A stretch of 64,000 nucleotides of DNA from Escherichia coli (GCF_036507355.1 NZ_AP027877.1); one strand, 5' to 3'. Shown: positions 8,827-31,335, counted from the stretch's first letter. A program made the numbers and translations. The notes: generated by a model from the letters alone, not told the origin.

Positions 8827-8892
8827 GAACTGGGGTGATTAGGCACTACATGTCTACATTTTCCCGGTCACCACCCCCTCAATCTTATGAAC

Positions 8893-10953: not shown

Positions 10954-11298
10954 GGAAAAGCCAGACCACTTATTTTGCTGGACATGTTGCTGGTTCTTTT
11001 ACTTTGAGAGATTTTAATTGATGGGTATTGTTTCTACGACAATAAAGTTTTGACAAAGAAGCAAATAAAATGCATATCTTTCGATTGTCACACATTGGAA
11101 TATCGACAGAGCATTGATGATATTACGCAAAATATATTGCAGCCAAGTGAACTGACATTACGATCGAACACAAATGCAACATGATGGATACTACCATTAC
11201 ATGTCGAGCTTGATTTTCCGTTTATTTCACGATTATCTCTTGATATTAACAGCTACGGACTTTTAAACAGATAAATCTCCCCGTACATCACCACAATA

Positions 11299-12069: not shown

Positions 12070-12075
12070 TCTCCC

Positions 12076-12470: not shown

Positions 12471-12652
12471 TCGATAAAGGCGAAAGAGGTGTTTCCGGCT
12501 CTTAAGAAATATTTACGCACATGCACCAGCATTACAGAAAATAAAACCTGCGATACATTTTAATCAATAAGGTTGCTTTACCAAGCTTCCATCGATATTG
12601 ATGGAAAATTCATTAGACCTAATATGAACAGAATGTTGCTCATCATCTTTAT

Positions 12653-13339: not shown

Positions 13340-13512
13340 AAAACAAAGAAAAAAACCATCAGTACAACATAATTTAGATTATAGAAAGCCAACCTCTTCA
13401 TCTTATTTCCCCGTCAACTCATCAAAACATTTTTCTATCTCTTTTATTTTATCCTCTACTTTTTTTGCTAACATATTCTCATCTTGAGCTTCAATATCTT
13501 CATTATTTAATT

Positions 13513-14205
13513 TTATATAAAATATCTTTCAACATTATATGCATTCTCAAATAACTGATCTTTACGCAATGTAACCAGATCATTAGCCACTGAAACATGT
13601 TTCTCATAGCTAACTTCATCCTTATTACTTGTTGCGAACTTATTAATACCCGTATAATCCTGAGTCCACATACCACCTTTTTGATTGTCACCCCAATACC
13701 AAAATATATGGGACATTTCATGGCAAAGTGTACTTACATGAGAGTCTCTACCTGTAACCGACTGTTTTATACCATGTCTGTATTCAAAATGCGCTCCGAT
13801 ATTTACAATGTAAGGAGGATCAAGATGTGGACTAATAAAAGCAGCAAATTCATTGCAGTTCGTATAATCTTTATAGCTTTCGATCGTCAAACCATTTGCA
13901 ATCGTCATTATTCGTCTGATGCCATCCATTATGAATAGTCTCGCTTGCATTCGTTTCCCAGTATCTTCCCCAACCTTTCTGATTTTTATAATGTCCTCGC
14001 CTTTAAGGCCAAAAACTTTAATAAAATCTCGTTGTTGCTCCCCCTCCCATGACATAATATCATCTGCTCTTTTCAATAAAACCATTTTCTGTGCTTTACA
14101 AGCCTTACTCATCATTATTTTAAATTTATTTGTAATTTTTTGCGGTACTACACATACTTGCGACTCGGGTTGTGAAGTCCCACTAGTATTATTATTCCCT
14201 GCCAT
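13513..14205 (-). CDS. putative T6SS cargo effector with HExxH motif (Zn-metallopeptidase-like candidate)
   Basis: 231 aa from MAGNNNTSGT (ORF-track start further upstream is IS-derived read-through); RBS GGAGGGG; start codon overlaps the reconstructed vgrG stop (ATGGCAGGGAATAA); HEMSH motif near the C-terminus; low GC. Confidence 0.45.
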   Translation of the reverse strand: MAGNNNTSGTSQPESQVCVVPQKITNKFKIMMSKACKAQKMVLLKRADDIMSWEGEQQRDFIKVFGLKGEDIIKIRKVGEDTGKRMQARLFIMDGIRRIMTIANGLTIESYKDYTNCNEFAAFISPHLDPPYIVNIGAHFEYRHGIKQSVTGRDSHVSTLCHEMSHIFWYWGDNQKGGMWTQDYTGINKFATSNKDEVSYEKHVSVANDLVTLRKDQLFENAYNVERYFI

Positions 14206-14349
14206 AATGCCCCTCCGGCTCAATATAAAAAGCATCCGAAAATAACAATTGGACTTTAATTTCCTGTGCTGTATCTGTATAAAAGTGAGGTAGCCTGAGT
14301 TTAACGGACACTCCTTCCTGAAATAGAATGGCATCAGAAGGAGCTAATA

Positions 14350-14652
14350 ATGAGCAGAAAAACCCAACGTTACTCTAAAGAGTTCAAAGCCGAAGCTGTC
14401 AGAACGGTTCTTGAAAATCAACTTTCGATCAGTGAAGGCGCTTCCCGATTATCTCTTCCTGAAGGCACTTTAGGACAATGGGTTACCGCCGCCAGAAAAG
14501 GGCTCGGTACTCCTGGTTCCCGCACGGTGGCTGAACTGGAATCTGAAATTCTGCAACTGCGTAAGGCGTTAAATGAAGCTCGCCTTGAGCGAGATATATT
14601 AAAAAAAGCAACAGCGTATTTTGCACAGGAGTCGCTGAAAAATACGCGTTAA
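14350..14652 (+). CDS. IS3-family transposase OrfA (HTH)
   Basis: 100-aa ORF MSRKTQRYSKEFKAEAVRTV... with leucine-zipper-like C-terminus. Confidence 0.85.
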   Translation: MSRKTQRYSKEFKAEAVRTVLENQLSISEGASRLSLPEGTLGQWVTAARKGLGTPGSRTVAELESEILQLRKALNEARLERDILKKATAYFAQESLKNTR

Positions 14653-14687
14653 TCGAACAATGGCGACAACAATTTCCCATTGAAGCG

Positions 14688-15506
14688 ATGTGTCAGGTAT
14701 TTGGTGTATCCAGGAGCGGTTATTACAACTGGGTACAGCATGAACCCTCAGACAGAAAACAAAGTGATGAGCGGCTAAAACTGGAGATTAAGGTGGCACA
14801 TATCCGCACTCGCGAAACATATGGAACCCGGCGGCTCCAGACGGAGCTGGCAGAGAATGGCATCATCGTTGGTCGTGACCGACTGGCACGTCTTCGTAAG
14901 GAGCTAAGGCTACGCTGTAAGCAGAAACGCAAGTTCAGAGCGACTACGAACTCGAACCACAATCTGCCAGTTGCGCCAAATCTGCTGAACCAGACGTTCG
15001 CTCCTACAGCACCAAATCAGGTCTGGGTGGCGGACCTGACGTATGTTGCCACACAGGAGGGATGGTTGTACCTCGCTGGCATCAAAGATGTTTATACGTG
15101 CGAAATTGTCGGCTACGCCATGGGAGAGCGCATGACAAAAGAGCTGACAGGTAAAGCCCTGTTTATGGCGCTCAGGAGCCAGCGCCCACCTGCCGGGCTA
15201 ATCCACCACTCTGATCGAGGTTCACAGTACTGCGCATACGATTACCGGGTCATACAGGAGCAGTTTGGTCTGAAAACATCAATGTCGCGTAAAGGTAACT
15301 GTTACGACAACGCTCCGATGGAAAGCTTCTGGGGAACGCTGAAAAATGAGAGCCTGAGCCACTATCGTTTTAATAACCGGGATGAAGCCATCTCAGTAAT
15401 ACGGGAATACATTGAGATTTTCTACAATCGTCAGCGTCGTCACTCTCGTCTGGGGAATATCTCCCCGGCAGCCTTCAGGGAAAAATATCATCAGATGGCT
15501 GCTTAA
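14688..15506 (+). CDS. IS3-family transposase OrfB (DDE integrase core; probably made as an OrfAB frameshift fusion)
   Basis: 272-aa ORF with DLTYV...HHSDRGSQY...SRKGNCYDNAPMESFW DDE signature. Confidence 0.85.
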   Translation: MCQVFGVSRSGYYNWVQHEPSDRKQSDERLKLEIKVAHIRTRETYGTRRLQTELAENGIIVGRDRLARLRKELRLRCKQKRKFRATTNSNHNLPVAPNLLNQTFAPTAPNQVWVADLTYVATQEGWLYLAGIKDVYTCEIVGYAMGERMTKELTGKALFMALRSQRPPAGLIHHSDRGSQYCAYDYRVIQEQFGLKTSMSRKGNCYDNAPMESFWGTLKNESLSHYRFNNRDEAISVIREYIEIFYNRQRRHSRLGNISPAAFREKYHQMAA

Positions 15507-15530
15507 AAAAAGAATAAATGGTAGTGTCCG

Positions 15531-17237
15531 CTATTGCCAGTACACCTCAAATATTTCTGTATATCCCTCTCTGTCTGTTTCACCACGCGTCTGTGTGCCA
15601 TCCTCAAAAAAGGCAATATACTGCGTCTCTGAATACGGTATCCCGTCATCGTCCGTAAAATGGAACTGGAGGGTATATTTTTCAGGATCATCTTCATCGT
15701 CACCGCCATCACCTCCTCCGTCACTCCCTGCGGGATTGCCACTATCCTCTCCGGAGTCATCACTGCCATCATCACTGCTCTCATCCTCCGGAGCCTCCAG
15801 CACCGCCGGCTGCATCGTCCCCACCGGTGTCCCCGCACTGCCCCCACCGTTCAGGTTTATCTTCGGCCCGGCAATATCCACTCCGCCCGGCTGAATGACG
15901 ATAAACGAGCCACCCACCTTCAGGCTTATCCGGCTGCTGCTCTCCAGCACGATATCCCCGTCCACTTTTATCCCCAGCGCGCCACTCACCTTCTCCGCCA
16001 GGTCCCCCTTCACCACCAGGCTGTGTTTCCCCTCCACCAGACTGATATGGTTCCCCGTCGTCTTATGCTCCTGCTTCCCTTCCACCGTCACTTTACGGTC
16101 GTTTCTGACGTACAGACCGTCATCGTGACTCACGCTCACCGTCCGGTCATTCGTCACCTTCAGAGTCTGGTCATTACGTACCGTGATACGCCGGTCGTTC
16201 GCCACCGTGATACTCTGGTCGTGGCCCCCCTCTTTTTTTGTACCGACCTGAACCGTCTGACCCTTCACCACCGTTATCTTCTGGTCGTTACCGATGGTTT
16301 CCGTATGGTCATGTTTTACATCCGTTGTCCGGTCGTTGAGCACCTCCGTATCCATGTTCTTCTGCGCATGGATATACACCTGCTCATTACTGGTGGCGTC
16401 TTCAAACCGCAGCTCGTTAAATCCGCTTCCTTTATAGGTTTTTGACCGTATCGTCATCTGCGTCTTCGTTCCCGGCAGGTCGCCCGGGGAGCGGTTGTCC
16501 TCATGGTACGTCCGCCCCATGATTATCGGCTGGTCCGGGTCTCCGTTCAGAAAATCAACAATCACCTCCTGGCCCACCCGCGGTATCGCCAGATTACCGA
16601 ACCCCGGCCCCGCCCACGCCTGCGATACCCGCACCCAGCATGAACTCGCCTCCGTCATCCCGTGATAACGGTCCCAGTGGAACTTCACCCGTACCCGGCC
16701 ATGTTCATCGCAGAAGATTTCCTCTCCCGCAGGCCCGGTGACAATGGCACTCTGCGGCCCGTCCACCTTCGGTTTGCTTTGCAGCCGTGGACGCCACGTC
16801 CGGTCCGCCGGTATCACCTCTAACTGATTTCCCAGCGTGGTTCCTCTCCCTTGGCTGCCGTGCAGCGCCTGCGGCTGGCTTCCTGACAGTATGCTCTGTA
16901 CCACCTGCCATTCACGGTTCAGCATCTTCTGCGGATGCCCCGTCAGCGTAAACCGCGTTCCCGGCCACAGCCTCGGCGAATTACTCTGCCCTGTGGCCTT
17001 TTCCGCATCACTGCGCAGGCTCTCCATCTGGTACAGCGTGAAATCCTTGCCGTGCTGCTCATCCTTGAACCTTCCCGGATAATCAAATATTTCATACTGC
17101 GCCAGCTGTCCGTTCAGGTTCTCACCCTGCTGCTCATACATCCCCGGCCAGTCCGGCACCTTAAACGTGTAATCCTGGCTCTGCACCGACGACGGGCGGA
17201 CATGCGCCTCATACGCTACCGCCCGGGTTTCCGGCAT
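15531..17237 (-). pseudogene. vgrG: vgrG (T6SS spike) lacking the N-terminal ~220 aa and interrupted 33 codons before its stop by IS600-like copy 1
   Basis: 568-aa ORF with gp5-like OB-fold motif (GPAGEEIFCDEHGRVRVKFHWDRY) only ~165 aa from its start, repeated VxxNDR beta-helix segments, DUF2345-like region, acidic Gly/Asp linker and a short C-terminal domain; the last residues EVYWQ are encoded by the IS terminus. Confidence 0.8.
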
Positions 17238-17294
17238 CCGCCATCTCCCTCATGAAAGCGTAACTCCTTACTGACACTCATTTTTTACACGTAC

Positions 17295-17328
17295 AAAAAC
17301 AACATCCTGCACGAAGGCAGGATGTTGT
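17295..17328 (-). terminator. rho-independent terminator downstream of hcp
   Basis: hairpin caacatcctgc-acgaag-gcaggatgttg followed on the minus strand by a T-rich tract. Confidence 0.55.
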
Positions 17329-17338
17329 TGACTCAGAT

Positions 17339-17857
17339 TTATGCTTCCAGCGGTGCACGCCAGTCATCGGCACCAGAAGTACCGGATTTGATGTGCTCCC
17401 ACTCAACCTTACGGTATGCCAGTGATACTGCGAGCAATTGCGTAAACTCACGCTGTGCAGGGTCCTGGCAGTGCGGCATGTGCAGGTTCATGTCCACAAT
17501 CGTCGCGTCAGTAAGACGTGTGGTGAAGTAGTGCTCCTGCTTGCCTTCAACTGAAGTACGCCACCAGTGCAGCTCCACTTTCGGCAGCATTTCACCGGAG
17601 GCCAGCGCGTTGTACAGCAGCGGAACGGCTTTGTTCAGCGCCACGGTGAAAATGAACGGTTTGTGCGCGCGCTGCCCGGAAGGTTGACCAGACTGTGGAT
17701 CGGTTGGAACAGTAACGTTATGCAGAAACTCCTGCACCAGCATTTCATCTTCGTGTCCCTGCACGTAGATATTGCCGACAGAATCTGCGGTGAAAGCACC
17801 GGCAGTGATGTTCCCCTGGGTCTGACCTGTAATTGAAATGTAACATGGGGTTGGCAT
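17339..17857 (-). CDS. hcp: Hcp (T6SS inner tube protein, TssD)
   Basis: 172-aa ORF MPTPCYISITGQTQGNITAGAFTADSVGNIYVQGHEDE..., typical Hcp1-family sequence and size. Confidence 0.9.
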   Translation of the reverse strand: MPTPCYISITGQTQGNITAGAFTADSVGNIYVQGHEDEMLVQEFLHNVTVPTDPQSGQPSGQRAHKPFIFTVALNKAVPLLYNALASGEMLPKVELHWWRTSVEGKQEHYFTTRLTDATIVDMNLHMPHCQDPAQREFTQLLAVSLAYRKVEWEHIKSGTSGADDWRAPLEA

Positions 17858-18559
17858 TTATGAACTCCTTGTGAAATTATCAACTGCTGTTTTACGAACA
17901 ACCCGTCGTTAATCCCCGACGGGTTAGAGTGTGATGCGGCTCACATCAGGAACCACACCCTTTTCTTTATTCGAGTTACAGGCACACGTAATTAGCACCT
18001 ACTGAAAAACTCTTTTATGGTGTTTAAATATATTTTTAGTCAATTTCAGAACACGGTCACATAAGCTAAAAATATATCAACTTCAACAGCAGAATTATCC
18101 ATAACGTATCTTCCCCCCCATAAAAATCCACAGCCGCGTCAAAAACAAATTATTACGACACTTACTCCGCCATCGTTCCAGCACGCAATTAAGATATTCC
18201 TTAAAGGAATTCCTTATGATGTATTGCCAGCAATTAATTAATTGATAAAACCATACATAAAACTTATTAATCAATTTAATAAATGCATATAAATCAATAT
18301 ATTATTGTATTTGATTGACCGTAAAATCATATTCATCAAGTCTATAAATACCAAAATCTATTTCACTATAATATATTAGCAAGGAAGAATGCATCTCTTT
18401 CTAAAATATAAATAGTTCTTTTAATATTTTATTTCATGAGTAGAATACTGATCACAACAGAAGGAAGGTTACATTATCTAACTGCCACTGAAACGGTATC
18501 TTCGGTATTTTTATGCAGTACGAAAATGCTGTGCTCATGGTCTGAACGGGAACATTTTT
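17858..18559. promoter_or_regulatory. AT-rich divergent intergenic region between hcp and the tssB stub (probable T6SS promoter region)
   Basis: about 700 bp of very AT-rich non-coding sequence between divergently oriented hcp and tssB starts. Confidence 0.35.
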
Positions 18560-18718
18560 ATGAGCAAAATGAACAACAATGGCGGCAGTGTCGCGCCGAA
18601 AGAAAGAATCAGCGTTCGGTATACACCAAAAGTTGATGGGGTGGCTGCTGATATCGAATTGCCGCTGAATTTATTGATCACCGGCAATCTGAAAGGGAAA
18701 CCAGATAACACGCCGTGA
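18560..18718 (+). pseudogene. tssB: tssB (T6SS sheath small subunit) 5' stub, 52 codons, truncated by an IS3-family element
   Basis: MSKMNNNGGSVAPKERISVRYTPKVDGVAADIELPLNLLITGNLKGKPDNTP matches the conserved TssB/VipA N-terminus; the stop codon TGA is the first three bases of the IS inverted repeat. Confidence 0.65.
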
Positions 18719-18772
18719 ATCGCCACGGGTTTAACAGACACCTCAGAGTCATTTAAGATGGCTTAAAGAGAG

Positions 18773-19057
18773 GTGCCCATGAGCGGTAAGCGTTATCCCG
18801 AAGAGTTTAAAATTGAAGCAGTCAAACAGGTTGTTGATCGCGGTTATTCTGTTGCCAGCGTTGCAACACGTCTCGATATCACCACCCACAGCCTTTACGC
18901 CTGGATAAAGAAGTACGGTCCGGATTCTTCCGCTAATAAAGAACAGTCAGATGCTCAGGCCGAGATCCGCCGTCTCCAGAAAGAGCTGAAGCGGGTTACC
19001 GACGAACGGGACATATTAAAAAAAGCCGCGGCGTACTTCGCAAAGCTGTCCGACTGA
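18773..19057 (+). CDS. IS3-family transposase OrfA
   Basis: 94-aa ORF MPMSGKRYPEEFKIEAVKQVVDRGYSVASVATRL... (HTH plus leucine zipper). Confidence 0.85.
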   Translation: MPMSGKRYPEEFKIEAVKQVVDRGYSVASVATRLDITTHSLYAWIKKYGPDSSANKEQSDAQAEIRRLQKELKRVTDERDILKKAAAYFAKLSD

Positions 19058-19113
19058 GGTACGCCTTTATCCGTGACAACACCTGTTGCTGGCCTGTTCG
19101 CCTGCTCTGTCGG

Positions 19114-19926
19114 GTGCTGGATGTTCATCCCAGTGGTTTTTACGCCTGGCTTCAGCAGCCGCATTCACAACGCCATCAGGCAGACCTGAGGCTGACAGGG
19201 CAGATTAAACAGTTCTGGCTGGAATCGGGATGCGTCTATGGTTATCGCAAAATCCATCTGGATCTGCGGGACAGCGGGCAACAGTGCGGAGTGAACAGAG
19301 TCTGGCGACTGATGAAACGTGTCGGGATAAAGGCTCAGGTCGGATACCGGAGCCCGCGGGCACGTAAAGGCGAGGCCAGTATCGTGTCGCCCAACAGGCT
19401 CCAGCGACAGTTCAATCCGGATGCTCCGGATAAGCGTTGGGTAACGGACATAACCTACATCAGGACCCACGAAGGCTGGCTGTATCTTGCCGTGGTTGTT
19501 GATCTGTTCTCACGCAAAATTATCGGCTGGTCCATGCAATCCCGGATGACAAAGGACATTGTCCTGAACGCACTGCTGATGGCTGTATGGCGCCGTAATC
19601 CCCAAAAACAGGTGCTGGTTCATTCGGATCAGGGCAGTCAGTACACAAGCCATGAGTGGCAGTCGTTCCTGAAATCACACGGCCTGGATGGCAGCATGAG
19701 CCGTCGCGGTAACTGCCATGATAATGCGGTTGCAGAAAGCTTTTTCCAGTTGTTGAAACGCGAACGGATAAAGAAAAAGATCTACGGAACGCGGGAAGAA
19801 GCCCGCAGCGATATTTTTGATTACATCGAAATGTTTTATAACAGTAAGCGTCGGCATGGTTCCAGCGATCAGATGTCACCGACAGAATATGAAAACCAGT
19901 ATTATCAACGGCTCGGAAGTGTCTAG
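19114..19926 (+). CDS. IS3-family transposase OrfB (DDE)
   Basis: 270-aa ORF with DITYIRTHEGWLYLAVVVDLFSRK...HSDQGSQYTS...SRRGNCHDNAVAESFF DDE signature. Confidence 0.85.
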   Translation: MLDVHPSGFYAWLQQPHSQRHQADLRLTGQIKQFWLESGCVYGYRKIHLDLRDSGQQCGVNRVWRLMKRVGIKAQVGYRSPRARKGEASIVSPNRLQRQFNPDAPDKRWVTDITYIRTHEGWLYLAVVVDLFSRKIIGWSMQSRMTKDIVLNALLMAVWRRNPQKQVLVHSDQGSQYTSHEWQSFLKSHGLDGSMSRRGNCHDNAVAESFFQLLKRERIKKKIYGTREEARSDIFDYIEMFYNSKRRHGSSDQMSPTEYENQYYQRLGSV

Positions 19927-20198
19927 ATTATCCGTGGCGATTCAGTTGTCAAGCAGATAGAAGCCATCTAGGTCAGGGGGAATGACTAGGAATTACTCCC
20001 CAAGGGTAGCGTACGTCTACACACATCAAATTACCTCCCGGACAGGGACATAGTAGAAATATTGTGTATTGCAATTATGGATACTGTCATCGTCTAGGTA
20101 GTTCGCCAGCTTTATAGTGTTTTACTGAATTTGGCCACCTGAGCAGAGGTGATATGGGAGAGTGATTTTCATACGCTCTCGTATGGTTTCCGGCCTGA

Positions 20199-20426
20199 AT
20201 GCAGTGTTCATCACGCGATCCGCACGGTGAAATTACAGCTCACAGACTGTGGGGAAACCCGGGGCGCTGGGTGATTGAAGACGACCTGTCCAGTTACTTC
20301 GACACCGTACACCATCGACTGCTGATGAAAGCCGTACGCCGCAGGATCAGTGACGCACGTTTTATGGCCCTCCTGTGGAAAACCATCAAGGCGGGCACAT
20401 CGAGGTCGGTCTCTTTCGGGCGGTAA
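20199..20426 (+). pseudogene. reverse transcriptase fragment (group II intron/retron-type RT, as in K-12 CP4-6 ykfC)
   Basis: translation contains IEDDLSSYFDTVHHRLLMKAVRRRISDARFMALLWKTIKAG, the RT fingers/palm motif context; only about 75 codons. Confidence 0.55.
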
Positions 20427-20439
20427 GTGACGCCGCGCC

Positions 20440-20684
20440 AGCTGACGTTGCCACGAATATTCGCCAATACGCTGCCAGACTTCGGTATGAAAGCGCAGAA
20501 TCAATGACCGGTAATCGGCCATGCTTTCGCGGTACGGCAGCGTCAACGTAAAGCAGAACACCACGAGTCGTGGGTAATGGTCAACGGCCTGTTGCAGAAA
20601 GGCTCGTGTATTTGTCGTGTCAGTCGAATTGCCGGAGACGATGGAGGGAGAATAAGGATTCATAACGGCGCTCTCAATGAACAC
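20440..20684 (-). pseudogene. prophage-remnant protein fragment (possibly inovirus Gp2-like)
   Basis: N-terminal part of minus-strand ORF 20211..20684 (MNPYSPSIVSGNSTDTTNTRAFLQQAVDHYPRL...); the rest of that ORF overlaps the RT fragment on the other strand and is probably read-through. Confidence 0.3.
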
Positions 20685-20888
20685 TGGTGTGATGGACAGG
20701 AGTGTGATGTTGCAGGTGTGCTGCTCATCATCGATCCCATATCATTACGTTCGCTCACTAAGACGGAGTGCCTTTCGTCATTTAACCTGTCACAATCCAA
20801 ATAATTTCAGACAGATATTATCTCCGTGAATCCCCCGCCTCCTTAACCGGAGCGCGGGGATTTTTCTTTTTCACGTTGAGAACTCTGT

Positions 20889-21773
20889 ATGACTAAACCT
20901 CACGGCCTTCAGGCCCTTGAACAACCGCTGGCGTCGCTTCCCGATGCGCTTCGCCAGCTTATTCTTGAACGTATTCAGAATCTCACCCACTATGAGCCGG
21001 TGATTGGTATCATGGGCAAAAGCGGTGCCGGTAAGTCTTCGCTCTGTAACGAACTCTTCCGGGGTGAGGTCTCCCCCGTCAGTGATGTGAACGCCTGTAC
21101 CCGTGAAGTGCTGCGCTTCCGGCTGCGCAGCGGGCGTCACAGTCTGGTGATTGTTGATTTACCGGGTGTGGGAGAAAACGGGCAACGGGACCATGAATAC
21201 CGTGCCCTGTACCGGCGTATGCTGCCGGAACTGGACCTGGTTCTGTGGGTCATTAAGTCCGATGACCGGGCGCTGTCGGTGGACGAGCAGTTCTGGCGCG
21301 GTGTGATGCAGCCTTACCAGCAGCAGGTGGTGTTCGTGATTAACCAGGCCGACAAAATAGAACCCAGCCATGAATGGGATACCCGTTCTGGTACTCCCTC
21401 AGCACAGCAACAGAAAAATCTTCAGGAAAAGCAGGTTGCCATTACCACGATGTTTAAGCCACATCACCCGGTCTGCGTGGTATCCGCATGTACCGGATGG
21501 GGCGTGGAGGATATGGTAGCAACCATGATGCGCTGTCTGCCGGACCGCGCCACCAGCCCAGTAGCGACACAGTTGCACGGGAGGCTCTGCACGGAGCCGG
21601 TAAAGTCGCAGGCCCGTGACGGCTTCGGTGAGGCGGTGGGGCGGTGGGGCGGGTGTTCGATACGGCAGAATCATCGTTATTCCTGCCTGCGCCGCTGAAG
21701 ACGGTGATACGTACCGTGCGTGATGCTGTGGTGTCTGTAGCCCGCGCGGTCTGGGACTGGATCTTCTTCTGAA
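20889..21773 (+). pseudogene. YeeP/YkfA/YfjP-like prophage GTPase with a probable 3' frameshift
   Basis: Walker A GKSGAGKSS, G3 DLPG and NQADK G4 motifs; the ORF ends at 21698 but a plausible conserved C-terminus (...TVIRTVRDAVVSVARAVWDWIFF) continues in another frame to about 21773. Confidence 0.65.
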
Positions 21774-22032
21774 TGAGTAAAAGGTCATCAGGACTGTAGT
21801 GAATGACTCTGTTTATTCACCGCCTGGTAGATGATTATTTCCAGGCAGACATAACCTGTCCTGACCAGCAAAAGATACCACCAGTCATAAGCGCGTCACC
21901 ACTGCCGACGTTGCATCCACACAGTCTTCTTGCACCAGGCGTTTCGCTACGTATGACGGACACAACCTGTCAGTCCCATCCTTTACAGTAATACCTTCTT
22001 TATTAATCAATTACCCAACACGGAGATAATAC

Positions 22033-22736
22033 ATGTCTCAGGCTGAGCGTCGTTATGACCGCCTGTCTGTCCGGCTTTCTCTAATTATCAGCCGTCTGCT
22101 CGCGGGTGAAACGCTGAATATGCGCAAACTGGCCGCTGAGTTTGGCATCTCGGAGCGTACCCTACATCGTGATTTCCGCGAGCGTCTGATTTATCTCGAC
22201 CTCGAATATCAGGATGGCTGCTGCCGTCTGCTGACCGGAGGCCGTCAGGAGATTCGGGAGGAGGCCGCAATGCAGTTTGCCCGTCAGTCAGGCACTGGCG
22301 CGTTGTTTCCTGATATGGACCACCATCTGGTCAATTCATTGCTGAGCAGCAAGGACTCCTCGCCATGTCTTATCTGGCATCCGTAACGTCTTCCCGCCCA
22401 GGCATCTTCACACGACTGGTCAGGGCGGTATCAGAAAACAGGAAGGTAACCCTGCTGGCTGACGGATGCCGTTGCGACAACCTTGCCCCCTACCGACTGA
22501 TTTTCAGCACCGGTGGGTGGTTTCTGGTGGGGGAACACCTTGCCCGGATAACCGTTTTTGCACTGCACACAGTTCACTCCGTGACGTTTCACGCGGAAAC
22601 CTTCACACCAGACGGACATTTCACCCGCATTCTGTCACACCCGGATTTTTTACAGGCGTTACCTCATTTTCATGTTTTTCATTCACTACTCGCTGACGGC
22701 AGTTACGGGCAGCTTACCCATAAGGAACAGGCATGA
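22033..22736 (+). pseudogene. YfjR-like HTH/WYL transcriptional regulator, split into two overlapping ORFs (22033..22386 and 22365..22736)
   Basis: N-terminal HTH ([21 protein letters not shown]) in ORF 1; ORF 2 in a different frame carries a WYL-like segment (GGWFLVGEH); combined length about 235 aa fits a single regulator. Confidence 0.45.
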
Positions 22737-23368
22737 AATTACTCACCTCGGCGGCGCTGGCCGCCAGCCTCTGCATTACCTCTGTGACCCCGGCCATCGC
22801 AGAAAATATCGTGGGTTCAGTTAAGGCCTGGCAGTACATGCAGGCTGATGGCTGGAAATCCGCTGATGGATACGATGATAACCGCATGCATAACGAGTTA
22901 TACCAGGCGGTCGTTCTTGATAATTATCCCTGGACGAATCACTTTCTGCTTCGTAGCAGAGGCGGTAGTTCGCTTTATCTGGCAGACAAGAAAGCTAAAA
23001 CTGTCAAATACATCGATATAAAACCTCGCGACGAGTATCCGTTACATCTTCAGGTTGTTTATCGGGGAATTGATGACGGGAGTGGCTGTTATTTCGCCAT
23101 TGTAGATGACCGAATGGCAAACTACTGGACGATTGTTGAAGATCGTCTTCTCTATCAGGACCCACCTGTTGAAGACGTCGATGCGAAAGCAGCTGAGCTT
23201 AGAAAACAACTCACGCCGGAAGTCGTGATGATGGTGAAGGATAATTGTATTGACAAACAGCAGCAGGCTGCACTGGCAGCTAAGCGTTCTGAAAAAGATC
23301 GAGAGTTGCAACAGTGGGTGGCGAAACAGAGCCTGGCGGAATTATGTCGTCGTACCGGCAACTGCTGA
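22733..23368 (+). CDS. hypothetical secreted protein (CP4-like remnant)
   Basis: 211-aa ORF with signal peptide MKLLTSAALAASLCITSVTPAIA; start overlaps the preceding stop. Confidence 0.5.
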   Translation: MKLLTSAALAASLCITSVTPAIAENIVGSVKAWQYMQADGWKSADGYDDNRMHNELYQAVVLDNYPWTNHFLLRSRGGSSLYLADKKAKTVKYIDIKPRDEYPLHLQVVYRGIDDGSGCYFAIVDDRMANYWTIVEDRLLYQDPPVEDVDAKAAELRKQLTPEVVMMVKDNCIDKQQQAALAAKRSEKDRELQQWVAKQSLAELCRRTGNC

Positions 23369-23403
23369 CCCGCTGAAAACAACCATAACAGGGAGTTTTT
23401 AAC

Positions 23404-23856
23404 ATGAATATATTTACTACGCGTCTGACGACCTCTCTGGTGGTCATCGGCACTCTGCTGCTCTCCGGCTGCGACAGCAAGGAAGATGCAGGCGTGAAGA
23501 CGATTGCCCGATTTAAGGACCTGACTCCGCCGCCCTTCAGCGACGTGGTGGCGCATAAATCCGATATCGAGCAGGAATGGGTAAAAAAGGATGCCTTCGG
23601 CACACCGCTATACACGGTAATGAAAACTCGCCAGTCGCCGGAAGGCTGTGAGTCCGGCAGTTATTACTACATTGCTGATATGCAGCAGAAAACGGTGCAG
23701 CCGCTGATAGCCGCCCTGTGTCTCGCGGACAATATTACTCTGAGCTTCCGGATCGAGACCGACAGCTACACGGGTGAGAAATCGGTGGTGTATTCGCACG
23801 ATGGCAAGGAAATGGGGAAACTCTTGCTGCCGGATAACCAGGAGAACCATCCATGA
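23404..23856 (+). CDS. hypothetical lipoprotein (YfjS-like position)
   Basis: 150-aa ORF with lipobox LLLSGC. Confidence 0.5.
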   Translation: MNIFTTRLTTSLVVIGTLLLSGCDSKEDAGVKTIARFKDLTPPPFSDVVAHKSDIEQEWVKKDAFGTPLYTVMKTRQSPEGCESGSYYYIADMQQKTVQPLIAALCLADNITLSFRIETDSYTGEKSVVYSHDGKEMGKLLLPDNQENHP

Positions 23857-24305
23857 AGAAGCTGAAAGGTGTTATCTCTGCTGCAGTCCTGAGTCTGTAT
23901 TTGCTGACACCGGCCCATGCTGATGGCGGTTTTCAGGGTGCCATCAAAGGCGGCATTCCGGCCTACACCCGCGATGTAAAACACAACAACCCCTTCTGGT
24001 GTAACCAGTACAAACTGGTGAGAAAGATGTGTGAAGTGGTTTCGCAATCGGAAAATGGGCGCGTTGCCATTGTCAGAATGGTCCCCACCGACTGGAAATG
24101 CCCCAACGGTATCTGGGGTGTGGTTGACCGTTCTAATGGTGACGCCATGGAGTTGGTCCCGACGGCGAAAATGTCCCTGGAGCAGTACTGCAGCAAGGCA
24201 TTCAGTGCAGGTTTTGTCAAACCACAGAACAGGAAATCACTGGCCGACGTCGTGATGTACTACAACGGCAAGCCAGTCGGTTCTTTCGAATACATTGAAG
24301 AGTGA
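23853..24305 (+). CDS. hypothetical secreted protein (YfjT-like position)
   Basis: 150-aa ORF with signal peptide MKKLKGVISAAVLSLYLLTPAHA; overlaps the previous stop (operon-like). Confidence 0.5.
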   Translation: MKKLKGVISAAVLSLYLLTPAHADGGFQGAIKGGIPAYTRDVKHNNPFWCNQYKLVRKMCEVVSQSENGRVAIVRMVPTDWKCPNGIWGVVDRSNGDAMELVPTAKMSLEQYCSKAFSAGFVKPQNRKSLADVVMYYNGKPVGSFEYIEE

Positions 24306-24367
24306 ACTCCCCGCCTCAGGGAGAAGCTTCCCGTATTCATTTAACACATTAAAAATAAAGGAAAAGA

Positions 24368-24910
24368 ATGAACTGGCATTATGAGAAAAATGGCGTGCGT
24401 CACGACAATGTGACCGAAGCCGACATAACCGAACGTATTCAGCGCGGGGAGCTGAATGCCTCAACGCTGGTATGGCAACAGGGCATGACGGAATGGCAGC
24501 CGCTGTCAGCCACGCCGCTGGCAGATGTCCTGAAACAATGTGCGGTTCCCCCCGCGCTGCCCGGCAATCGTATCCCCGGAAGCATGGTCTGGACGCTGGC
24601 CTTTGCGCCCCTGATTGGGTATGCCCTGGAGATGTGGACGGCCGGGCTGAGCGGAATGGAATTTGAAGAGGCGTATGCCGCCGTGACGGAGGGGCAATAC
24701 TGGTTTATCACACTGATACTGAATATTGCGCTGGGGTATCTGGATGAACGACGGCTCCGTAAATCCGGCGTTGATACCGCCGCCTTTGGCTGGCTGGCCT
24801 GGCTGGTTCCGTTTTATCTGTGGCGTCGGGCAAAAGCCCTCGGACAGAAACCGGCTTACTTCTGGGTCTGGCTGGTCACGCTGACAGTGACAGTCCTGGG
24901 CGCAGGATAA
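24368..24910 (+). CDS. hypothetical membrane protein with N-terminal GYF-like/DUF4339-like segment
   Basis: 180-aa ORF; NGVRHDNVTEADITERIQRGELNASTLVWQQGMTEWQPL followed by hydrophobic helices. Confidence 0.45.
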   Translation: MNWHYEKNGVRHDNVTEADITERIQRGELNASTLVWQQGMTEWQPLSATPLADVLKQCAVPPALPGNRIPGSMVWTLAFAPLIGYALEMWTAGLSGMEFEEAYAAVTEGQYWFITLILNIALGYLDERRLRKSGVDTAAFGWLAWLVPFYLWRRAKALGQKPAYFWVWLVTLTVTVLGAG

Positions 24911-24969
24911 CCGGCATCAGCGCTGTCCGGCCCGGATGAGCAGGCAAGTTAAATCAAGGAACAATATCA

Positions 24970-25800
24970 ATGAACAACATGCTGAAAAGTGTTATTTCCG
25001 CTGCGACCCTGAGTCTGTGTCTGCTGACACCCGCTCATGCAGAAGAGCAACGTTATATCAGTATTCCCAGCGTCTTCGGGGAAGGTAAGCACGTGTCCCG
25101 TTCAGACCATTACAGCTACATACCGACCATTACCCTGCTGGAGAACCTGCAGCGTGAAGGATTCCAGCCGTTCTTTGCCTGCCAGACCCGCGTCAGGGAC
25201 CAGAGCCGCCGTGAGCATACGAAACATATGCTGCGCCTGCGTCGCTCCGGGCAGATAACCGGTCAGCAGGTGCCGGAAATTATCCTGCTCAATTCGCATG
25301 ACGGTTCGTCCAGTTACCAGATGTTGCCGGGGTATTTCCGTGCCATCTGTACCAACGGTCTCGTCTGCGGGCAGTCATTTGGCGAGGTGCGAGTGCCACA
25401 CCGGGGAAATGTCGTGGAGAAAGTGATTGAAGGCGCTTACGAAGTCCTCGGTGTGTTCGACCGGGTGGAAGAGAAGCGTGATGCGATGCAGTCGCTTTTA
25501 CTCCCGCCACCGGCACAACAGGCTTTTGCCAGAGCCGCGCTGACGTACCGCTTCGGGGAAGAGCACCAGCCGGTGACGGAAGCGCAGATACTGACACCCC
25601 GCCGCTATGAAGACCGTCAGGATGACCTGTGGTCAGTTTTTAATCGGTGCCAGGAGAACCTGCTCAAAGGGGGGCTGCCAGGACGTACTGCCAAAGGCAA
25701 ACGCAGCCATACCCGCGCGGTGAAAGGCATCGACGGCGACGTTAAGCTCAACCGGGCACTCTGGGTGATGGCGGAAAAACTGCAGCAGGCGCTGAGCTGA
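24970..25800 (+). CDS. DUF932-like prophage protein carrying an N-terminal signal peptide
   Basis: 276-aa ORF; signal peptide MNNMLKSVISAATLSLCLLTPAHA homologous to that of ORF 23853; body contains YIPTITLLENLQREGFQPFFACQTR; family assignment from memory. Confidence 0.45.
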   Translation: MNNMLKSVISAATLSLCLLTPAHAEEQRYISIPSVFGEGKHVSRSDHYSYIPTITLLENLQREGFQPFFACQTRVRDQSRREHTKHMLRLRRSGQITGQQVPEIILLNSHDGSSSYQMLPGYFRAICTNGLVCGQSFGEVRVPHRGNVVEKVIEGAYEVLGVFDRVEEKRDAMQSLLLPPPAQQAFARAALTYRFGEEHQPVTEAQILTPRRYEDRQDDLWSVFNRCQENLLKGGLPGRTAKGKRSHTRAVKGIDGDVKLNRALWVMAEKLQQALS

Positions 25801-26067
25801 TGCCACCACTGCCTGATAACGCCCACCCGGCCGCCATTAATCCTGCCCCCTGGAGAACAACCCCGGCAGCCGCCCCATCTCCGATGACGACCTGTGCGCC
25901 TGTGCTCACACCTTCTTTATCGTCCCGGTGAACTCAGTTTCTGCCGGTTAAGTCTCGCTGACGGCCACTGGCCCTCACACTGTGATGAAGACGGCTATGC
26001 GCAGTCCTGTCCGTCACTCCGATTGAACCGGTATCCCCAACACAATGAATGAAAGAGGAAAAACAAC

Positions 26068-26538
26068 ATGACCGATAACACTCTGCCACTGTTCACACCC
26101 GCAGCAGATGCTCCTGCTGCGGCTCAGCATCAGATTATCGCTATACCGGTAACCGATGAGAACCGCATCAGCTTCTGGCCGCAGCACTTTGGCAGCATTC
26201 CGCAGTGGATAATCCTTGAGCCGACCATCTTCGCGTGGATGGACCGCTTCTGCACGGACTACAGCGGCGGCATCTGGAATTTTTACACGCTGAGCAACGG
26301 CGGCGCGTTTATGGCCCCGGAAGTGGAGAACGATGAACTCTGGTCGCTGTTTAACACGATGAACGGCAACGGCGGTGACATGAGTGCCGAAGCTGCAGGG
26401 ATTGCGGTCTGTCTGATGGCTTTCAGCCACCATGCCTGCCGTACCGAATGCGACGCCATGACGGAGCACTACTACCGCCTGCGGGACTACGCGCTCAACC
26501 ACGCGGAATGCAACGCCATCATGCACATCATCGACTGA
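26068..26538 (+). CDS. antirestriction protein, KlcA/ArdB family (YafX/YfjX-like)
   Basis: 156-aa ORF; sequence and gene order typical of CP4-type remnants. Confidence 0.75.
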
Positions 26539-26549
26539 GGTCAGCCGCT

Positions 26550-27029
26550 ATGGAGCAACAGTTACCGTTGTTTGCCCGTGAATTAGCCCCTGCCGACCAG
26601 CAGACAGTCAGGAAAGCCTTATCTCTGCTGGAGTGCCAGCTACGTGAAACCGGCGCGTCATTTACTTCCAGCCATGCTGTCCGCGACTGGCTGCGCCTGC
26701 AGCTCGCGTCACTGGAGCGGGAAGAGTTTACCGCGCTCTTTCTCGATAACCAGCATCGCCTGATAGCCCACGAAACGCTATTTACCGGCACCATCAACCA
26801 TACGCAGGTCCATCCCCGCGAAGTGGTGAAGGCCGGTCTGAAGCATAACTGCGCCGCTGTCATTGTCGCCCATAGCCATCCCTCCGGGGAGGCTGAACCC
26901 AGCAAGGCAGACCGTCAGGTCACTACGCGTATTCAGCAGGCGCTGGACCTGGTTGATATCCGCTTGCTGGACCACCTGGTGGTCGGCGGCATGGAGATCA
27001 CCTCGTTTGCAGATCGTGGCTGGCTGTAG
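26550..27029 (+). CDS. RadC-like JAB-domain protein (YkfG/YeeS/YfjY-like)
   Basis: start at internal MEQQLPLF of ORF 26448..27029; JAMM motif [14 protein letters not shown]. Confidence 0.8.
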
Positions 27030-27049
27030 CACAACAGGAGAATAACCGA

Positions 27050-27271
27050 ATGAAAATTATCAGTAAACGTCAGGCTATGGCGATATACCGCCAGCATCCG
27101 CAGTCCCGGTTGTTTCCCTTCTGCACGGGTAAATACAAATGGTCTGGCAGCATCTGCCACTACGCTGGGCAGGAGGTTCAGGATATCAGCGGTGTGCTCG
27201 CGGTCTTCGCTGAACGCCGTCAGAACCGCAACGGCCCCTATGTCGTATTACGCAGCGTCACGCTGAATTAA
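27050..27271 (+). CDS. DUF987-family small protein (YkfH/YeeT-like)
   Basis: 73-aa ORF immediately upstream of the antitoxin gene, conserved position. Confidence 0.65.
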   Translation: MKIISKRQAMAIYRQHPQSRLFPFCTGKYKWSGSICHYAGQEVQDISGVLAVFAERRQNRNGPYVVLRSVTLN

Positions 27272-27294
27272 CACACGTTTAAGGAAGGCTAAAA

Positions 27295-27654
27295 TTGTCG
27301 AATAAAATACCGACAGTAAACCACGATATCACTGAACCCTGGTGGGGGCTTAAACGCAGTATCACGCCCTGTTTTGGCGCACGGCTGGTGCAGTCGGGCA
27401 ACTGTCTGCATTATCTCGCTGACCGGGCCAGCATCACCGGACAGTTCAGCGACGGGGATTTACGGCATCTCGACCAGGCATTTCCACTGCTGCTCAAACA
27501 GCTTGAACTGATGCTCACCAGCGGTGAACTCACTCCCCGCCATCAGCACTGTGTCACGCTCTATGCAAAAGGGCTGACCTGCGAGGCCGACTCCCTCGGC
27601 TCGCATGGTTACGTATACCTGGCGATTTATCCGACACCAGCGGCAACCGCGTAA
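27295..27654 (+). CDS. type IV antitoxin, CbeA/YeeU/YafW family
   Basis: 119-aa [24 protein letters not shown]...; canonical neighbour of the CbtA toxin gene. Confidence 0.8.
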
Positions 27655-27704
27655 AGCTTCTTACTACTTACCCTCGTTTTACCCATCAACAAAGAGATCC
27701 CACT

Positions 27705-28082
27705 ATGCAAACCCAACCACTATCCTCAACGCAGGAGGCTACATCACGCCCGTCACCGGTGGAGATCTGGCAACGGCTTCTGAGCCACCTGTTGGATCGT
27801 CACTACGGTCTGACGCTTAACGACACGCCGTTTGGCAACGACGGTGTGATTCAGGAGCATATCGACGCCGGTATATCACTGTGCGACGCCGTGAATTTTA
27901 TTGTGGAGAAGTACGATCTGGTGCGCATCGATCGTCACGGTTTCAGTACAGAAACACAGTTGCCGCGTCACACCAGTATCGATATTCTCCGCGCCCGCAA
28001 AGCCACCGGGTTGATGACTCGCAACGATTACAGAACGGTGACCGACATCACCACCGGTAAATACCGTGGGGGGCATCGATGA
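27705..28082 (+). CDS. type IV toxin, CbtA/YeeV/YkfI family (cytoskeleton-targeting)
   Basis: 125-aa ORF following the antitoxin gene; sequence typical of the CbtA family. Confidence 0.8.
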
Positions 28083-28570
28083 AGTTATCCCTGACGGTAG
28101 AAGCCGACGCCATCAACGTTCTGGCCCTGAATGCGGGCCGGATCGCTGTGGATATTGACGGCATTGAACTGGCTGCGCTGATCGATGTGGTCTGTGATAA
28201 CGGTTATTCCCTTCGCGTTGCTGACTCCCCCGGAAAGCTGGTCGTTGAAGATCCGCTTCCACCCGTCGCCCGCGTTAATGGCATCCAGTGCAGTACCGCG
28301 CATATTACGGAGAAAGACAACGCTCTGCTGTTTACTCTTTCACACCAGAATGAAGACTTTGGTGAGTCGGAATGGATTAGTTACACCGGGTCGGGTTATC
28401 TGCTCCACCTGGGTGCCTGGTCATTTCCGGTCTTACGCCTCAAACGTCTCGGTCTGTCGAAAGCCTGCCGTCGGTTAGTAGTGACGCTTATCCGTCGCTA
28501 CGCCGTTGGCATTGTTCATCTGGATGCCTTTGGCGAAGTGCTGCCGGGCTTTGACATTTTCGACTGGTAA
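28079..28570 (+). CDS. hypothetical protein (YeeW-like position)
   Basis: 163-aa ORF overlapping the toxin stop; family not verified. Confidence 0.4.
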
Positions 28571-28601
28571 ATCTTCTCACCAATAAGCACAGGATATTCT
28601 C

Positions 28602-28805
28602 ATGGAGAAATTAACCACCGAAGTGGCTCTCAACGTTCTGATTGACTGGCTGCAGGACAACATCGATTGTGGGAACATGATTATTTTCGACAACGACGAA
28701 GACAACACCGATTCAGCAGTGCTGTTGCCCTGGATTGAACGTGCGCGTCAGGACGTTCGCGATCTCCGTCATCTTCAACTTCTGCGACAGACCAGTACAG
28801 ATTAA
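28602..28805 (+). CDS. small hypothetical protein
   Basis: 67-aa ORF in the CP4-like remnant. Confidence 0.3.
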   Translation: MEKLTTEVALNVLIDWLQDNIDCGNMIIFDNDEDNTDSAVLLPWIERARQDVRDLRHLQLLRQTSTD

Positions 28806-28861
28806 CCACCGAACAGTACTCATCACTTACTCATAATCGCCAGCCCTCACCGGCTGGCGCT

Positions 28862-29730
28862 TTGCTTTATATAAGGAACGAAATAATGTCAGAGCTTACT
28901 CTCACCAAACCCGAAGTATTAACCGGCCACACCGACGTGATTTGCTCCACCAGCATTGAGCGTATTGTCACGGGACGTAATGCCGCGCTGGCGCAGATTG
29001 AAGTGCTCATGCAACAACTGGACGATGTTTCGATGCTGACCCGCAGTCTCGGGGGAAAAACCGCGCTGGACTGGGCTATGAAGCAGGATTTCCGTTGCGG
29101 CTGCTGGTTGATGGAGAAACCAGAAACGGCGATGAAAGCTATTACCCGTAATCTCGATCGCAGCATATGGCGAGACCTGATGAAGAAGTCGGGCATGATT
29201 TCGCTCATGGATGCTCAGGCTCGTGACCAGTGGTACAACAGTCTGGAAAAGGATGACATTCCTGCCGTCAGCGAAGAGAATATTCTCAGCACGTTTGAGC
29301 AACTGCATCTGAACAAGGGCGAGGTGTTTGAGCGCGGAGTGATAAATGTGTTCAAAGGTTTAAGCTGGAATTTTAAGACAAATTCCCCTGCAAGTTTGGG
29401 GCGAAAATTATCGTTACCGGACTAGTCAAGTTCGATCGGTGGGGATTTGGGCTTAACTGGGGCTGGCAGCGTGACCGGTTAGCTGACCTTGAGCGTATGC
29501 TGATGCTTCTTGATGGCAAACCGGTTCCCTACAACCGCGCTGACGTTACCCGTCGTCTCAGCGATCATATCCATGAGAACAGGCACAGTAACCGTTACGA
29601 GGATGAGATGTTTGTGATTAAGTATTTTCAGAAGGGAACTGCACACATCGTATTCAAGCGACCTGAGTTGATTGATAAGCTGAACAACATCATCGCCCGA
29701 CACTATCCGGGAGCACTGCCAGCGAGATGA
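28862..29730 (+). pseudogene. DUF4942-like prophage protein, probably frameshifted (ORFs 28862..29425 and 29497..29730)
   Basis: two consecutive ORFs of 187 and 77 aa in different frames at the island end next to aspV; combined size fits the single ~270-aa genes found at this position in CP4-type elements; family assignment tentative. Confidence 0.4.
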
Positions 29731-29822
29731 GAGGTGAGTGAGTTGTCCGAAGCTATCTCAGGTGAGCCAGTGCAAGCCGGACGGCAATGGCATACTGGAT
29801 GGCATACCGAAAAAAACAAGCA

Positions 29823-29854
29823 TAAAAAAGGCCATGCTAATCAATAGCATGGCC
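29823..29854 (-). terminator. rho-independent terminator downstream of aspV
   Basis: hairpin ggccatgcta-atcaat-agcatggcc with T-tract on the minus strand. Confidence 0.55.
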
Positions 29855-29862
29855 TCGAATAG

Positions 29863-29939
29863 TGGCGGAACGGACGGGACTCGAACCCGCGACCCCCTGC
29901 GTGACAGGCAGGTATTCTAACCGACTGAACTACCGCTCC
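29863..29939 (-). tRNA. aspV: tRNA-Asp (GUC)
   Basis: reverse complement GGAGCGGTAGTTCAGTCGGTTAGAATACCTGCCTGTCACGCAGGGGGTCGCGGGTTCGAGTCCCGTCCGTTCCGCCA; identical to the copy at 38087..38163. Confidence 0.95.
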
Positions 29940-30071
29940 GCGTTGTGTTCCGTTGGGAACGAGGCGAATATTACGGATTGCCTCACCCTTCGTCAATGGT
30001 TTTTCTCATCTTTTGAATCGTTTGCTGCAAAAATCGCCCAAGTCGCTATTTTTAGCGCCTTTTACAGGTAT

Positions 30072-30803
30072 TTATGCCCGCCAGAGGCAGCTTCCGCCTT
30101 TCTTCTGCACCAGATCGAGACGGGCTTCATGTGCTGCAAGCTCTTCATCTGTCGCAAAAACAACGCGTAACTTACTTGCCTGACGTACAATGCGCTGAAT
30201 TGTTGCTTCACCTTGTTGCTGCTGTGTCTCTCCTTCCATCGCAAAAGCCATCGACGTTTGACCACCGGTCATCGCCAGATAAACTTCCGCAAGGATCTGG
30301 GCATCGAGTAATGCCCCGTGCAGCGTTCGTTTACTGTTATCTATTTCGTAGCGGGCACATAACGCATCGAGGCTGTTGCGTTTACCGGGAAACATTTTCC
30401 TCGCCACCGCAAGGCTATCGGTGACCTTACAGAAGGTGTTGGTCTTCGGAATATCACGCTTAAGCAACGAGAACTCGTAGTCCATAAAGCCGATATCGAA
30501 CGCTGCGTTATGGATCACCAACTCCGCGCCGCGGATATAGTCCATGAACTCATCGGCTACTTCGGCAAACGTGGGCTTATCGAGCAAAAACTCATCGGCA
30601 ATACCGTGTACGCCAAAGGCTTCCGGATCCACCAGCCGATCGGGTTTGAGATAAACATGGAAGTTATTGCCCGTCAGGCGACGGTTCACCACTTCAACGG
30701 CACCAATCTCAATGATCTTGTGGCCTTCATAGTGCGCACCAATCTGGTTCATACCGGTGGTTTCGGTATCGAGAACGATCTGGCGTGTAATTGCAGTGCT
30801 CAT
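30072..30803 (-). CDS. dnaQ: DNA polymerase III epsilon subunit (3'-5' proofreading exonuclease)
   Basis: 243 aa from [19 protein letters not shown]; DEDDh exonuclease motifs. Confidence 0.9.
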
Positions 30804-30867
30804 AGCGGTCATTTATGTCAGACTTGTCGTTTTACAGTTCGATTCAATTACAGGAAGTCTACCAGAG

Positions 30868-31335
30868 ATGCTTAAACAGGTAGAAATTTTCACCGATGGT
30901 TCGTGTCTGGGTAATCCTGGACCTGGGGGCTACGGCGCTATTTTACGCTATCGCGGACGCGAGAAAACTTTTAGCGCTGGCTACACCCGCACCACCAACA
31001 ACCGCATGGAGTTGATGGCCGCTATTGTCGCGCTGGAGGCGTTAAAAGAACATTGCGAAGTCATTTTGAGTACCGACAGCCAGTATGTCCGCCAGGGTAT
31101 CACCCAGTGGATCCATAACTGGAAAAAACGTGGCTGGAAAACAGCAGACAAAAAACCAGTAAAAAATGTCGATCTCTGGCAACGTCTTGATGCTGCGCTG
31201 GGGCAGCATCAAATCAAATGGGAATGGGTTAAAGGCCATGCCGGACACCCGGAAAACGAACGCTGTGATGAACTGGCTCGTGCCGCGGCGATGAATCCCA
31301 CACTGGAAGATACGGGCTACCAAGTCGAAGTTTAA
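30868..31335 (+). CDS. rnhA: ribonuclease HI
   Basis: 155 aa from [23 protein letters not shown]; divergent from dnaQ as in K-12. Confidence 0.9.

Follow-up and report, generated by a model that had tools for sequence, protein, structure and literature searches.

Known relatives of the locus considered here include the CP4-type elements of Escherichia coli K-12 and the pathogenicity island (PAI) that occupies aspV in strain CFT073. In K-12 CP4-6, thrW is followed by ykfI (toxin), yafW, ykfH, ykfG and yafX, and then by yafZ and ykfA; intF lies 34 kb from thrW and is transcribed inward, and a 49-bp repeat of the thrW 3' end is found ~110 bp upstream of the intF start. The ptwF-intF pair of this element was tested as an 'OD' integrase-tRNA shape by Panis et al. 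(PMC2951348). For the toxin-antitoxin (TA) pairs carried by such elements, work on characterised K-12 paralogues established that CbtA inhibits FtsZ and MreB and that CbeA neutralises it (PMC5624674, PMC5371832); residue R15 of CbtA mediates MreB binding and F65 mediates FtsZ binding, as shown experimentally (PMC5624674). Here we describe a 64-kb segment of E. coli-type chromosome (from NZ_AP027877.1; 'the window' hereafter) in which a CP4-type module (20642-29733) lies next to the 3' end of the tRNA gene aspV. Very probably, this locus is what is left, on the aspV side, of a CP4-6- or PAI-aspV-type genomic island that had integrated at the tRNA gene, although its history is one that we infer.

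The junction with aspV was analysed by aligning the window with an island-free strain and with CFT073. The point from which the window is identical to the island-free strain (yafT-aspV) coincides exactly with the CCA end of the tRNA, and the island-side sequence, terminator included, is common to the window and CFT073. The terminator sequence is missing from the island-free strain, whose sequence downstream of the tRNA differs. Neither an insertion sequence (IS) nor a scar is present between DUF4942, the last gene of the module, and aspV. Of 5,426 complete E. coli genomes, 287 share the DUF4942-aspV junction, CFT073 with its PAI-aspV among them, and gene order and polarity in MDR_56 and in CFT073 PAI-aspV are as in the window. 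On these alignments, the DUF4942/toxin end beside aspV is the native att end of the island, and not the outcome of a rearrangement. The original prediction, made from the sequence alone, had the TA end abutting aspV and, with the missing integrase, took this to indicate an immobile, composite element. The toxin side does face the tRNA, but DUF5983, DUF957 and DUF4942, which had not been listed, lie between them; the arrangement is no anomaly, given the breakpoint at the CCA end, the 287 genomes and CP4-6, since a TA end at the tRNA without an adjacent integrase is the native polarity of the CP4-6/PAI-aspV class. As CFT073 PAI-aspV and CP4-6 share this polarity, an integrase beside aspV was never to be expected and the loss lies at the distal end.

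Homologues of IntF and IntA, the two queries used, were not detected in the 64 kb by tblastn, and the PGAP annotation of homologous regions inspected in relatives contains DDE transposases only and no integrase. Similarly, no att repeat of the aspV 3' end (≤3 mismatches) was found in the 64 kb besides the complete rrn-linked tRNA-Asp at 38087, and a generic repeat search returned chance-level short repeats, IS terminal repeats, a shared signal-peptide repeat and nothing else. The P4-type tyrosine integrase (as judged from the IntA/IntF search) and the flanking tRNA 3'-end repeat that together characterize a mobile CP4 element are thus both lacking, as had been predicted for the window, and the element is a remnant, like CP4-44. 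With no integrase and a single att site, it would undergo neither site-specific excision nor transfer and would be inherited as part of the chromosome.

Genes of the module were identified by Pfam scans and by tblastn, with query proteins taken from the PGAP annotation of the nearest relatives and from CP4-6, CP4-44 and CP4-57 of K-12 (Table 1). All are encoded on the plus strand and point to the aspV 3' end, in the order GTPase, HTH-WYL regulator, signal-peptide proteins, GYF_2/DUF4339, DUF932, antirestriction, RadC-like, DUF987, CbeA, CbtA, DUF5983, DUF957 and DUF4942; the CP4-like gene series proposed initially was therefore borne out. Five of these genes, from the antirestriction gene through the RadC-like, DUF987 and CbeA genes to CbtA, form a collinear block (26068-28082) of adjacent, uniformly oriented and intact genes, which agrees with the earlier view that the antirestriction, RadC-like and CbeA/CbtA genes had escaped damage. 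Pfam matches of the five products exceed the curated cut-offs and identities to K-12 paralogues range from 58 to 76% (72% to both YafX and YfjX for the antirestriction protein, 58-60% for the RadC-like protein). The block corresponds to the CP4-57 yfjXY-ypjJ-yfjZF operon (PMC10846083). Two damaged genes upstream of the block also have K-12 counterparts: the GTPase shares 53-54% identity with YkfA and YfjP, and DUF932 shares 78-80% with YafZ and YfjQ. No MqsA-type palindrome (ACCT-N(2-4)-AGGT) was found upstream of the antirestriction gene, the single match in the window being elsewhere and at chance level. PADLOC reported no defence system, just a generic WYL match and a weak LeoBC-like GTPase match. 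Sec or lipoprotein signal peptides are encoded four times (22733-23368, 23404-23856, 23853-24305 and the N-terminus of 24970-25800). A 68-nt direct repeat of 81% identity (23856-23923 versus 24976-25043) encodes similar signal peptides (...LLTPAHA) in both copies, which suggests that the 150-amino acid protein and the IrmA N-terminus are paralogous.

The antitoxin gene precedes the toxin gene, with 50 bp between the two. This antitoxin-upstream order and the two protein families are those of CbtA/CbeA, YkfI/YafW and YpjF/YfjZ, to which the pair in the window adds a fourth paralogous lineage; in comparison with CbtA/CbeA of CP4-44, the toxin is 69% identical by tblastn (67% over the whole alignment) and the antitoxin 76%. 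Alignment with CbtA indicates that R15 and F65 are both present in the toxin. By analogy with the characterised homologues, the pair is expected to act as a type IV TA system, with the CbtA-family toxin blocking FtsZ and MreB and the CbeA-family antitoxin counteracting it.

Some of the other genes are damaged, as read from alignment with the near-identical copy of strain NCTC9008. The GTPase gene is frameshifted by a tandem 8-bp duplication (GGCGGTGG) at 21632-21639 and the WYL regulator gene by the loss of 10 bp after 22375, corresponding to one unit of a short direct repeat. These are the two frameshifts that the original prediction named; it listed neither the frameshift in DUF4942 (a 1-bp deletion near 29378, common to NCTC9008 and not present in FJ_Ec_21) nor a gene fusion. 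The fusion results from an 870-bp deletion, absent from NCTC9008, which removed the body of IrmA, DUF905 and the DUF932 N-terminus and left an in-frame open reading frame (ORF), IrmA'::'DUF932 (24970-25800), that joins the IrmA signal peptide (amino acids 1-32) to amino acids 28-272 of DUF932. The lesions are of the slippage type, and three of them do not occur in the NCTC9008 copy, which is nearly identical in other respects. The intact set comprises the 211- and 150-amino acid secreted proteins, the YfjS/YafY lipoprotein, DUF4339, the antirestriction and RadC proteins, DUF987, CbeA, CbtA, DUF5983 and DUF957.

At the distal end, the 5' fragment of tssB, a gene of the type VI secretion system (T6SS), is cut at 18716 by the left end of an IS3-family element which joins it to the island remnant, confirming the proposed fusion to T6SS debris through an IS. 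This IS (18716-19944) contains orfA (18773-19057) and orfB (19114-19926) between 38-nt terminal inverted repeats and has no target-site duplication (flanks ccg and gtt); its first 314 bp are 97% identical to K-12 'ISX'. Searches of the 5,426 complete E. coli genomes and of GTDB species representatives gave no match to the exact tssB-IS junction. Between the IS and position ~20642, where the conserved module starts and FJ_Ec_21 rejoins the window, lies a mosaic of fragments. One of these, a reverse transcriptase (RT) fragment, had been counted as part of the conserved module. Its DNA is 92.6% identical to K-12 ykfC and to E. coli C ltrA, as against 53-80% amino acid identity between module proteins and their K-12 paralogues; being far closer to its K-12 counterpart and sitting among truncated pieces, it is independent retroelement (group II intron) debris outside the module. 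An Rfam search of 17000-31000 retrieved tRNA only and no surviving group II intron RNA domain. The E. coli C copy of the IS3-family element is interrupted by an IS30 and, within the transposase gene, by a full-length group II intron (ltrA). We considered whether IS and RT fragment form one travelling unit, as in E. coli C, and rejected this, since the intron of E. coli C is inside the IS, whereas the IS of the window is unbroken and has the RT fragment outside its limits.

Table 1. Features of the window (positions counted from its first nucleotide) and the evidence for each
Feature	Position	Strand	Evidence or remark
dpaA, yafJ, lpcA, fadE, ivy, yafV	1-6500
Integrating conjugative element (ICE) protein relic and remnants of the aspV-linked T6SS-1 cluster	6500-18716
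IS3-family element, 1,229 bp, uninterrupted	18716-19944	+	Pfam HTH_Tnp_1 and rve
Mosaic zone of fragments	19945-20641	.	blastn to K-12, E. coli C, Klebsiella plasmid island
IS911 left-end fragment, 41 bp	20116-20156
Group II intron RT fragment (ykfC/ltrA-like), 280 bp	20149-20440		blastn; tblastn with ykfC
YfjJ/YagK-type island backbone gene fragment, 176 bp	20434-20609
YkfA/YfjP-type GTPase pseudogene	20889-21772	+	Pfam MMR_HSR1; tblastn match split over two frames
YfjR-like HTH plus WYL regulator pseudogene	22033-22736	+	Pfam HTH_11 and WYL on separate ORFs
Secreted protein, 211 amino acids, intact	22733-23368	+	100% identical to WP_000772020; signal peptide
YfjS/YafY-family lipoprotein, intact	23404-23856	+	Pfam YfjS_YafY 1e-54; lipobox LLSGC
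Secreted protein, 150 amino acids, intact, signal peptide IrmA-like	23853-24305	+	tblastn, direct repeat
DUF4339/GYF_2 protein, intact	24368-24910	+	Pfam GYF_2
Chimeric ORF, IrmA signal peptide + DUF932	24970-25800	+	tblastn, blastn gap, junction sequences, Pfam DUF932
Antirestriction protein (YafX/YfjX/LfgA family), intact	26068-26538	+	Pfam Antirestrict 2.5e-38
RadC-like JAB protein (YkfG/YfjY/LfgB family), intact	26550-27029	+	Pfam RadC 1.4e-44
DUF987 protein, intact	27050-27271	+	Pfam DUF987
CbeA/YeeU-family type IV antitoxin, intact	27295-27654	+	Pfam CbeA_antitoxin PF06154, 5e-52
CbtA-family toxin, intact	27705-28082	+	Pfam CbtA_toxin PF06755, 1e-49
DUF5983 (YeeW-like) protein, intact	28079-28570	+	Pfam DUF5983_N and DUF5983
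DUF957 protein, intact	28602-28805	+	100% identical to WP_000413747
DUF4942 (methyltransferase-like) pseudogene	28886-29733	+	Pfam on two ORFs; PHROG DNA methyltransferase match
Intrinsic terminator of aspV, 12-bp stem	29828-29856	-	terminator scan; island DNA
aspV tRNA-Asp(GTC)	29863-29939	-	ARAGORN, Rfam; 3' end faces island = surviving att junction

These results can be accommodated in the following history. The ancestral element would have recombined into the 3' end of aspV, its DUF4942/TA end adjoining the regenerated tRNA; the other end would have held the integrase, next to a displaced 3' fragment of aspV, which is the arrangement of K-12 CP4-6. In the island-free strain the gene order is T6SS, yafT, aspV, dnaQ; yafT and most of the neighbouring T6SS cluster are absent in this lineage. 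IS-mediated deletion or recombination may have removed the distal part of the island (integrase, attR and cargo) along with yafT and the rest of the T6SS, an event that the tssB::IS joint without target duplication would fit. Decay is going on through slippage indels and a deletion, and still intact is the antirestriction-RadC-DUF987-CbeA-CbtA block with DUF5983 and DUF957. Some observations weigh against this history. None of the four relatives inspected has an aspV island in which a distal integrase adjoins a repeat of the aspV 3' end: in NCTC9008, FJ_Ec_21, CFT073 and MDR_56 both island boundaries lack an integrase (the three stretches of CFT073 that were inspected span about 240-324 kb and 330-360 kb, and a single short 'site-specific integrase' ORF lies in the interior of its island). 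A distal integrase at aspV is therefore proposed by analogy with CP4-6. In addition, the search for integrases consisted only of the IntA and IntF tblastn queries and of homologous-region annotation, and a trans-acting integrase may be encoded elsewhere in the source genome, beyond the window; with no second att site, such an enzyme would have no substrate. For the same reason it is extremely improbable, and the least probable of the alternatives, that the remnant is still mobilisable and excised in trans by the integrase of another CP4-type island. E. coli genomes usually hold several paralogous modules (median of 4 matching places per genome) and the window is all that was seen of the source genome, but only one att site is left, with no aspV 3' repeat in the 64 kb, and on the far side an IS connects the remnant to tssB. 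Only slightly less improbable is that the TA end reached aspV by secondary inversion or fusion of an island with a tRNA-adjacent integrase, as in CP4-57, where ssrA is followed by intA and then by the module, which has its toxin gene farthest from ssrA. IS elements abound in the window, and two IS600 copies (14283-15551 and 50346-51614) that are 99.8% identical and in inverted orientation bracket the island, aspV, dnaQ and the rrn operon, which could support an inversion. However, island-side sequence starts precisely where the CCA end of the tRNA stops and provides aspV with its terminator, the stretch from DUF4942 to aspV is free of IS and scars, the junction is shared by 287 genomes that include the divergent CFT073 allele (~86% DNA identity) and CP4-6 has a like polarity with both att sites intact. 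Secondary inversion is accordingly disfavoured.

It was also considered that the locus might be a true degraded prophage or a P4-like satellite, in keeping with the K-12 annotation, which names the paralogous regions cryptic prophages CP4-6, CP4-44 and CP4-57, and with the matches of several module proteins to PHROG families. Those matches are devoid of any hallmark function. A PHROG scan of ten module proteins found no capsid, terminase, tail, lysis or primase protein and no P4 sid, psu or delta, and matched only families of unknown function, an antirestriction 'moron', a RadC 'DNA repair' family and a methyltransferase. DUF932 (64% identity), DUF905 (54%) and the antirestriction protein (29%) have homologues in the leading region of the F plasmid; at least 5,000 plasmids carry a DUF932 homologue and, among the 5,000 that scored best, 88% were typed as conjugative. 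The whole module is found on a Klebsiella plasmid as well. A prophage or satellite origin is consequently very improbable. The term 'prophage remnant' used in the original prediction holds as regards a decayed CP4-type remnant and fails as regards phage, of which there is no hallmark gene; 'cryptic prophage' is a historical name for what is functionally a genomic-island maintenance module. The plasmid copy just mentioned is on K. pneumoniae pRWS291.s3 (IncFIB/IncHI1B), where positions 5000-19100 carry the complete module from WYL through DUF957 within an island-like segment with AlpA, YfjJ-type and zinc-ribbon genes; its DUF932 is 85% identical. Because DUF932, DUF905 and the antirestriction protein are shared with plasmid leading regions, the module could conceivably be a non-phage establishment and anti-defence cassette of conjugative-element ancestry, whose operon is kept by host-benefit selection and whose aspV copies spread without an integrase; this is doubtful, if less so than the alternatives above. 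If true, it would mean that the antirestriction-RadC-DUF987-CbeA-CbtA operon (with DUF5983 and DUF957) is kept intact by selection as the GTPase, regulator, DUF932 and DUF4942 decay, and that aspV-linked copies owe their persistence and spread to vertical descent and to homologous recombination in flanking DNA. Neither annotated relatives nor the ORFs of the window show an ssb, psiB, relaxase or tra gene in the module, and the resemblance to the leading region of conjugative plasmids is one of shared gene families only.

Several further features were noted in the surroundings of the island. A relic encoding an 'integrating conjugative element protein' (PFL_4695 family according to the CFT073 annotation; 6561-7073, minus strand) adjoins yafV and is bordered by ISAs1 fragments. 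A like relic adjoins yafV in CFT073 and in 23CRST031, so that an old ICE remnant marks the yafV edge of the aspV variable region. Among the T6SS remnants, the phospholipase effector gene tle1 (region 8893-11299) is a full-length ORF of 686 amino acids; the immunity gene tli1a, which is beside tle1 in strain 23CRST031, is missing from the window (~512 bp absent) and the T6SS core is likewise deleted. The first of the two IS600 copies truncates a vgrG gene and the second interrupts yaeF. Beyond aspV, the window continues with dnaQ, rnhA, the rrn operon and more core genes.

The finding is ordinary and already known, inasmuch as near-identical copies have been annotated in public genomes and K-12 and CFT073 offer precedents for the architecture. 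It represents a routine case of fixation of a tRNA-linked island, in which IS activity presumably costs the integrase and one att site, slippage erodes the genes and the TA operon outlasts the rest, and it is of little importance beyond correct annotation. A near-identical module allele is annotated elsewhere, 51 of the 5,426 complete genomes holding at least 80% of the module. The aspV islands of NCTC9008, ATCC 8739 and FJ_Ec_21 carry the same allele (99.6-100% DNA identity from 19932 or 20642 to aspV) and share the aspV junction of the window; the interval from yafV to aspV is free of integrases. Unlike in the window, their GTPase, WYL regulator, IrmA, DUF905 and DUF932 genes are intact, the T6SS is completely lost and a pco/sil copper-silver cluster lies to the left of the module, whereas the window keeps T6SS remnants and has no pco/sil. 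In NCTC9008 and FJ_Ec_21 the pco/sil cluster is bounded by IS and takes the place of the T6SS between yafV and the module. K-12 CP4-6 has the polarity seen here, with the toxin side directly at an intact tRNA and the genes as far as the GTPase convergent with it, and resembles the window also in having RT (ykfC) and IS debris beyond the GTPase. It differs in sitting at thrW, in keeping intF and the 49-bp attR repeat, in the position of DUF932 (beside the GTPase in CP4-6 and beside the antirestriction gene in the window) and in lacking DUF5983, DUF957 and DUF4942. PAI-CFT073-aspV (PAI III) has another allele (~86% DNA identity at the junction), measures 100 kb, bears Pic, TosA and CdiA cargo, is interrupted by IS66, IS630 and IS21 and is wholly devoid of T6SS; nevertheless, it shares with the window the attachment site, the aspV-DUF4942 junction, the polarity and the order of families from DUF932 to DUF4942. 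The locus thus combines the insertion at a tRNA or tmRNA 3' end that marks CP4-type elements, here at aspV, with the DUF4942 end at the aspV 3' end and the island-borne terminator that characterize the PAI-aspV type.

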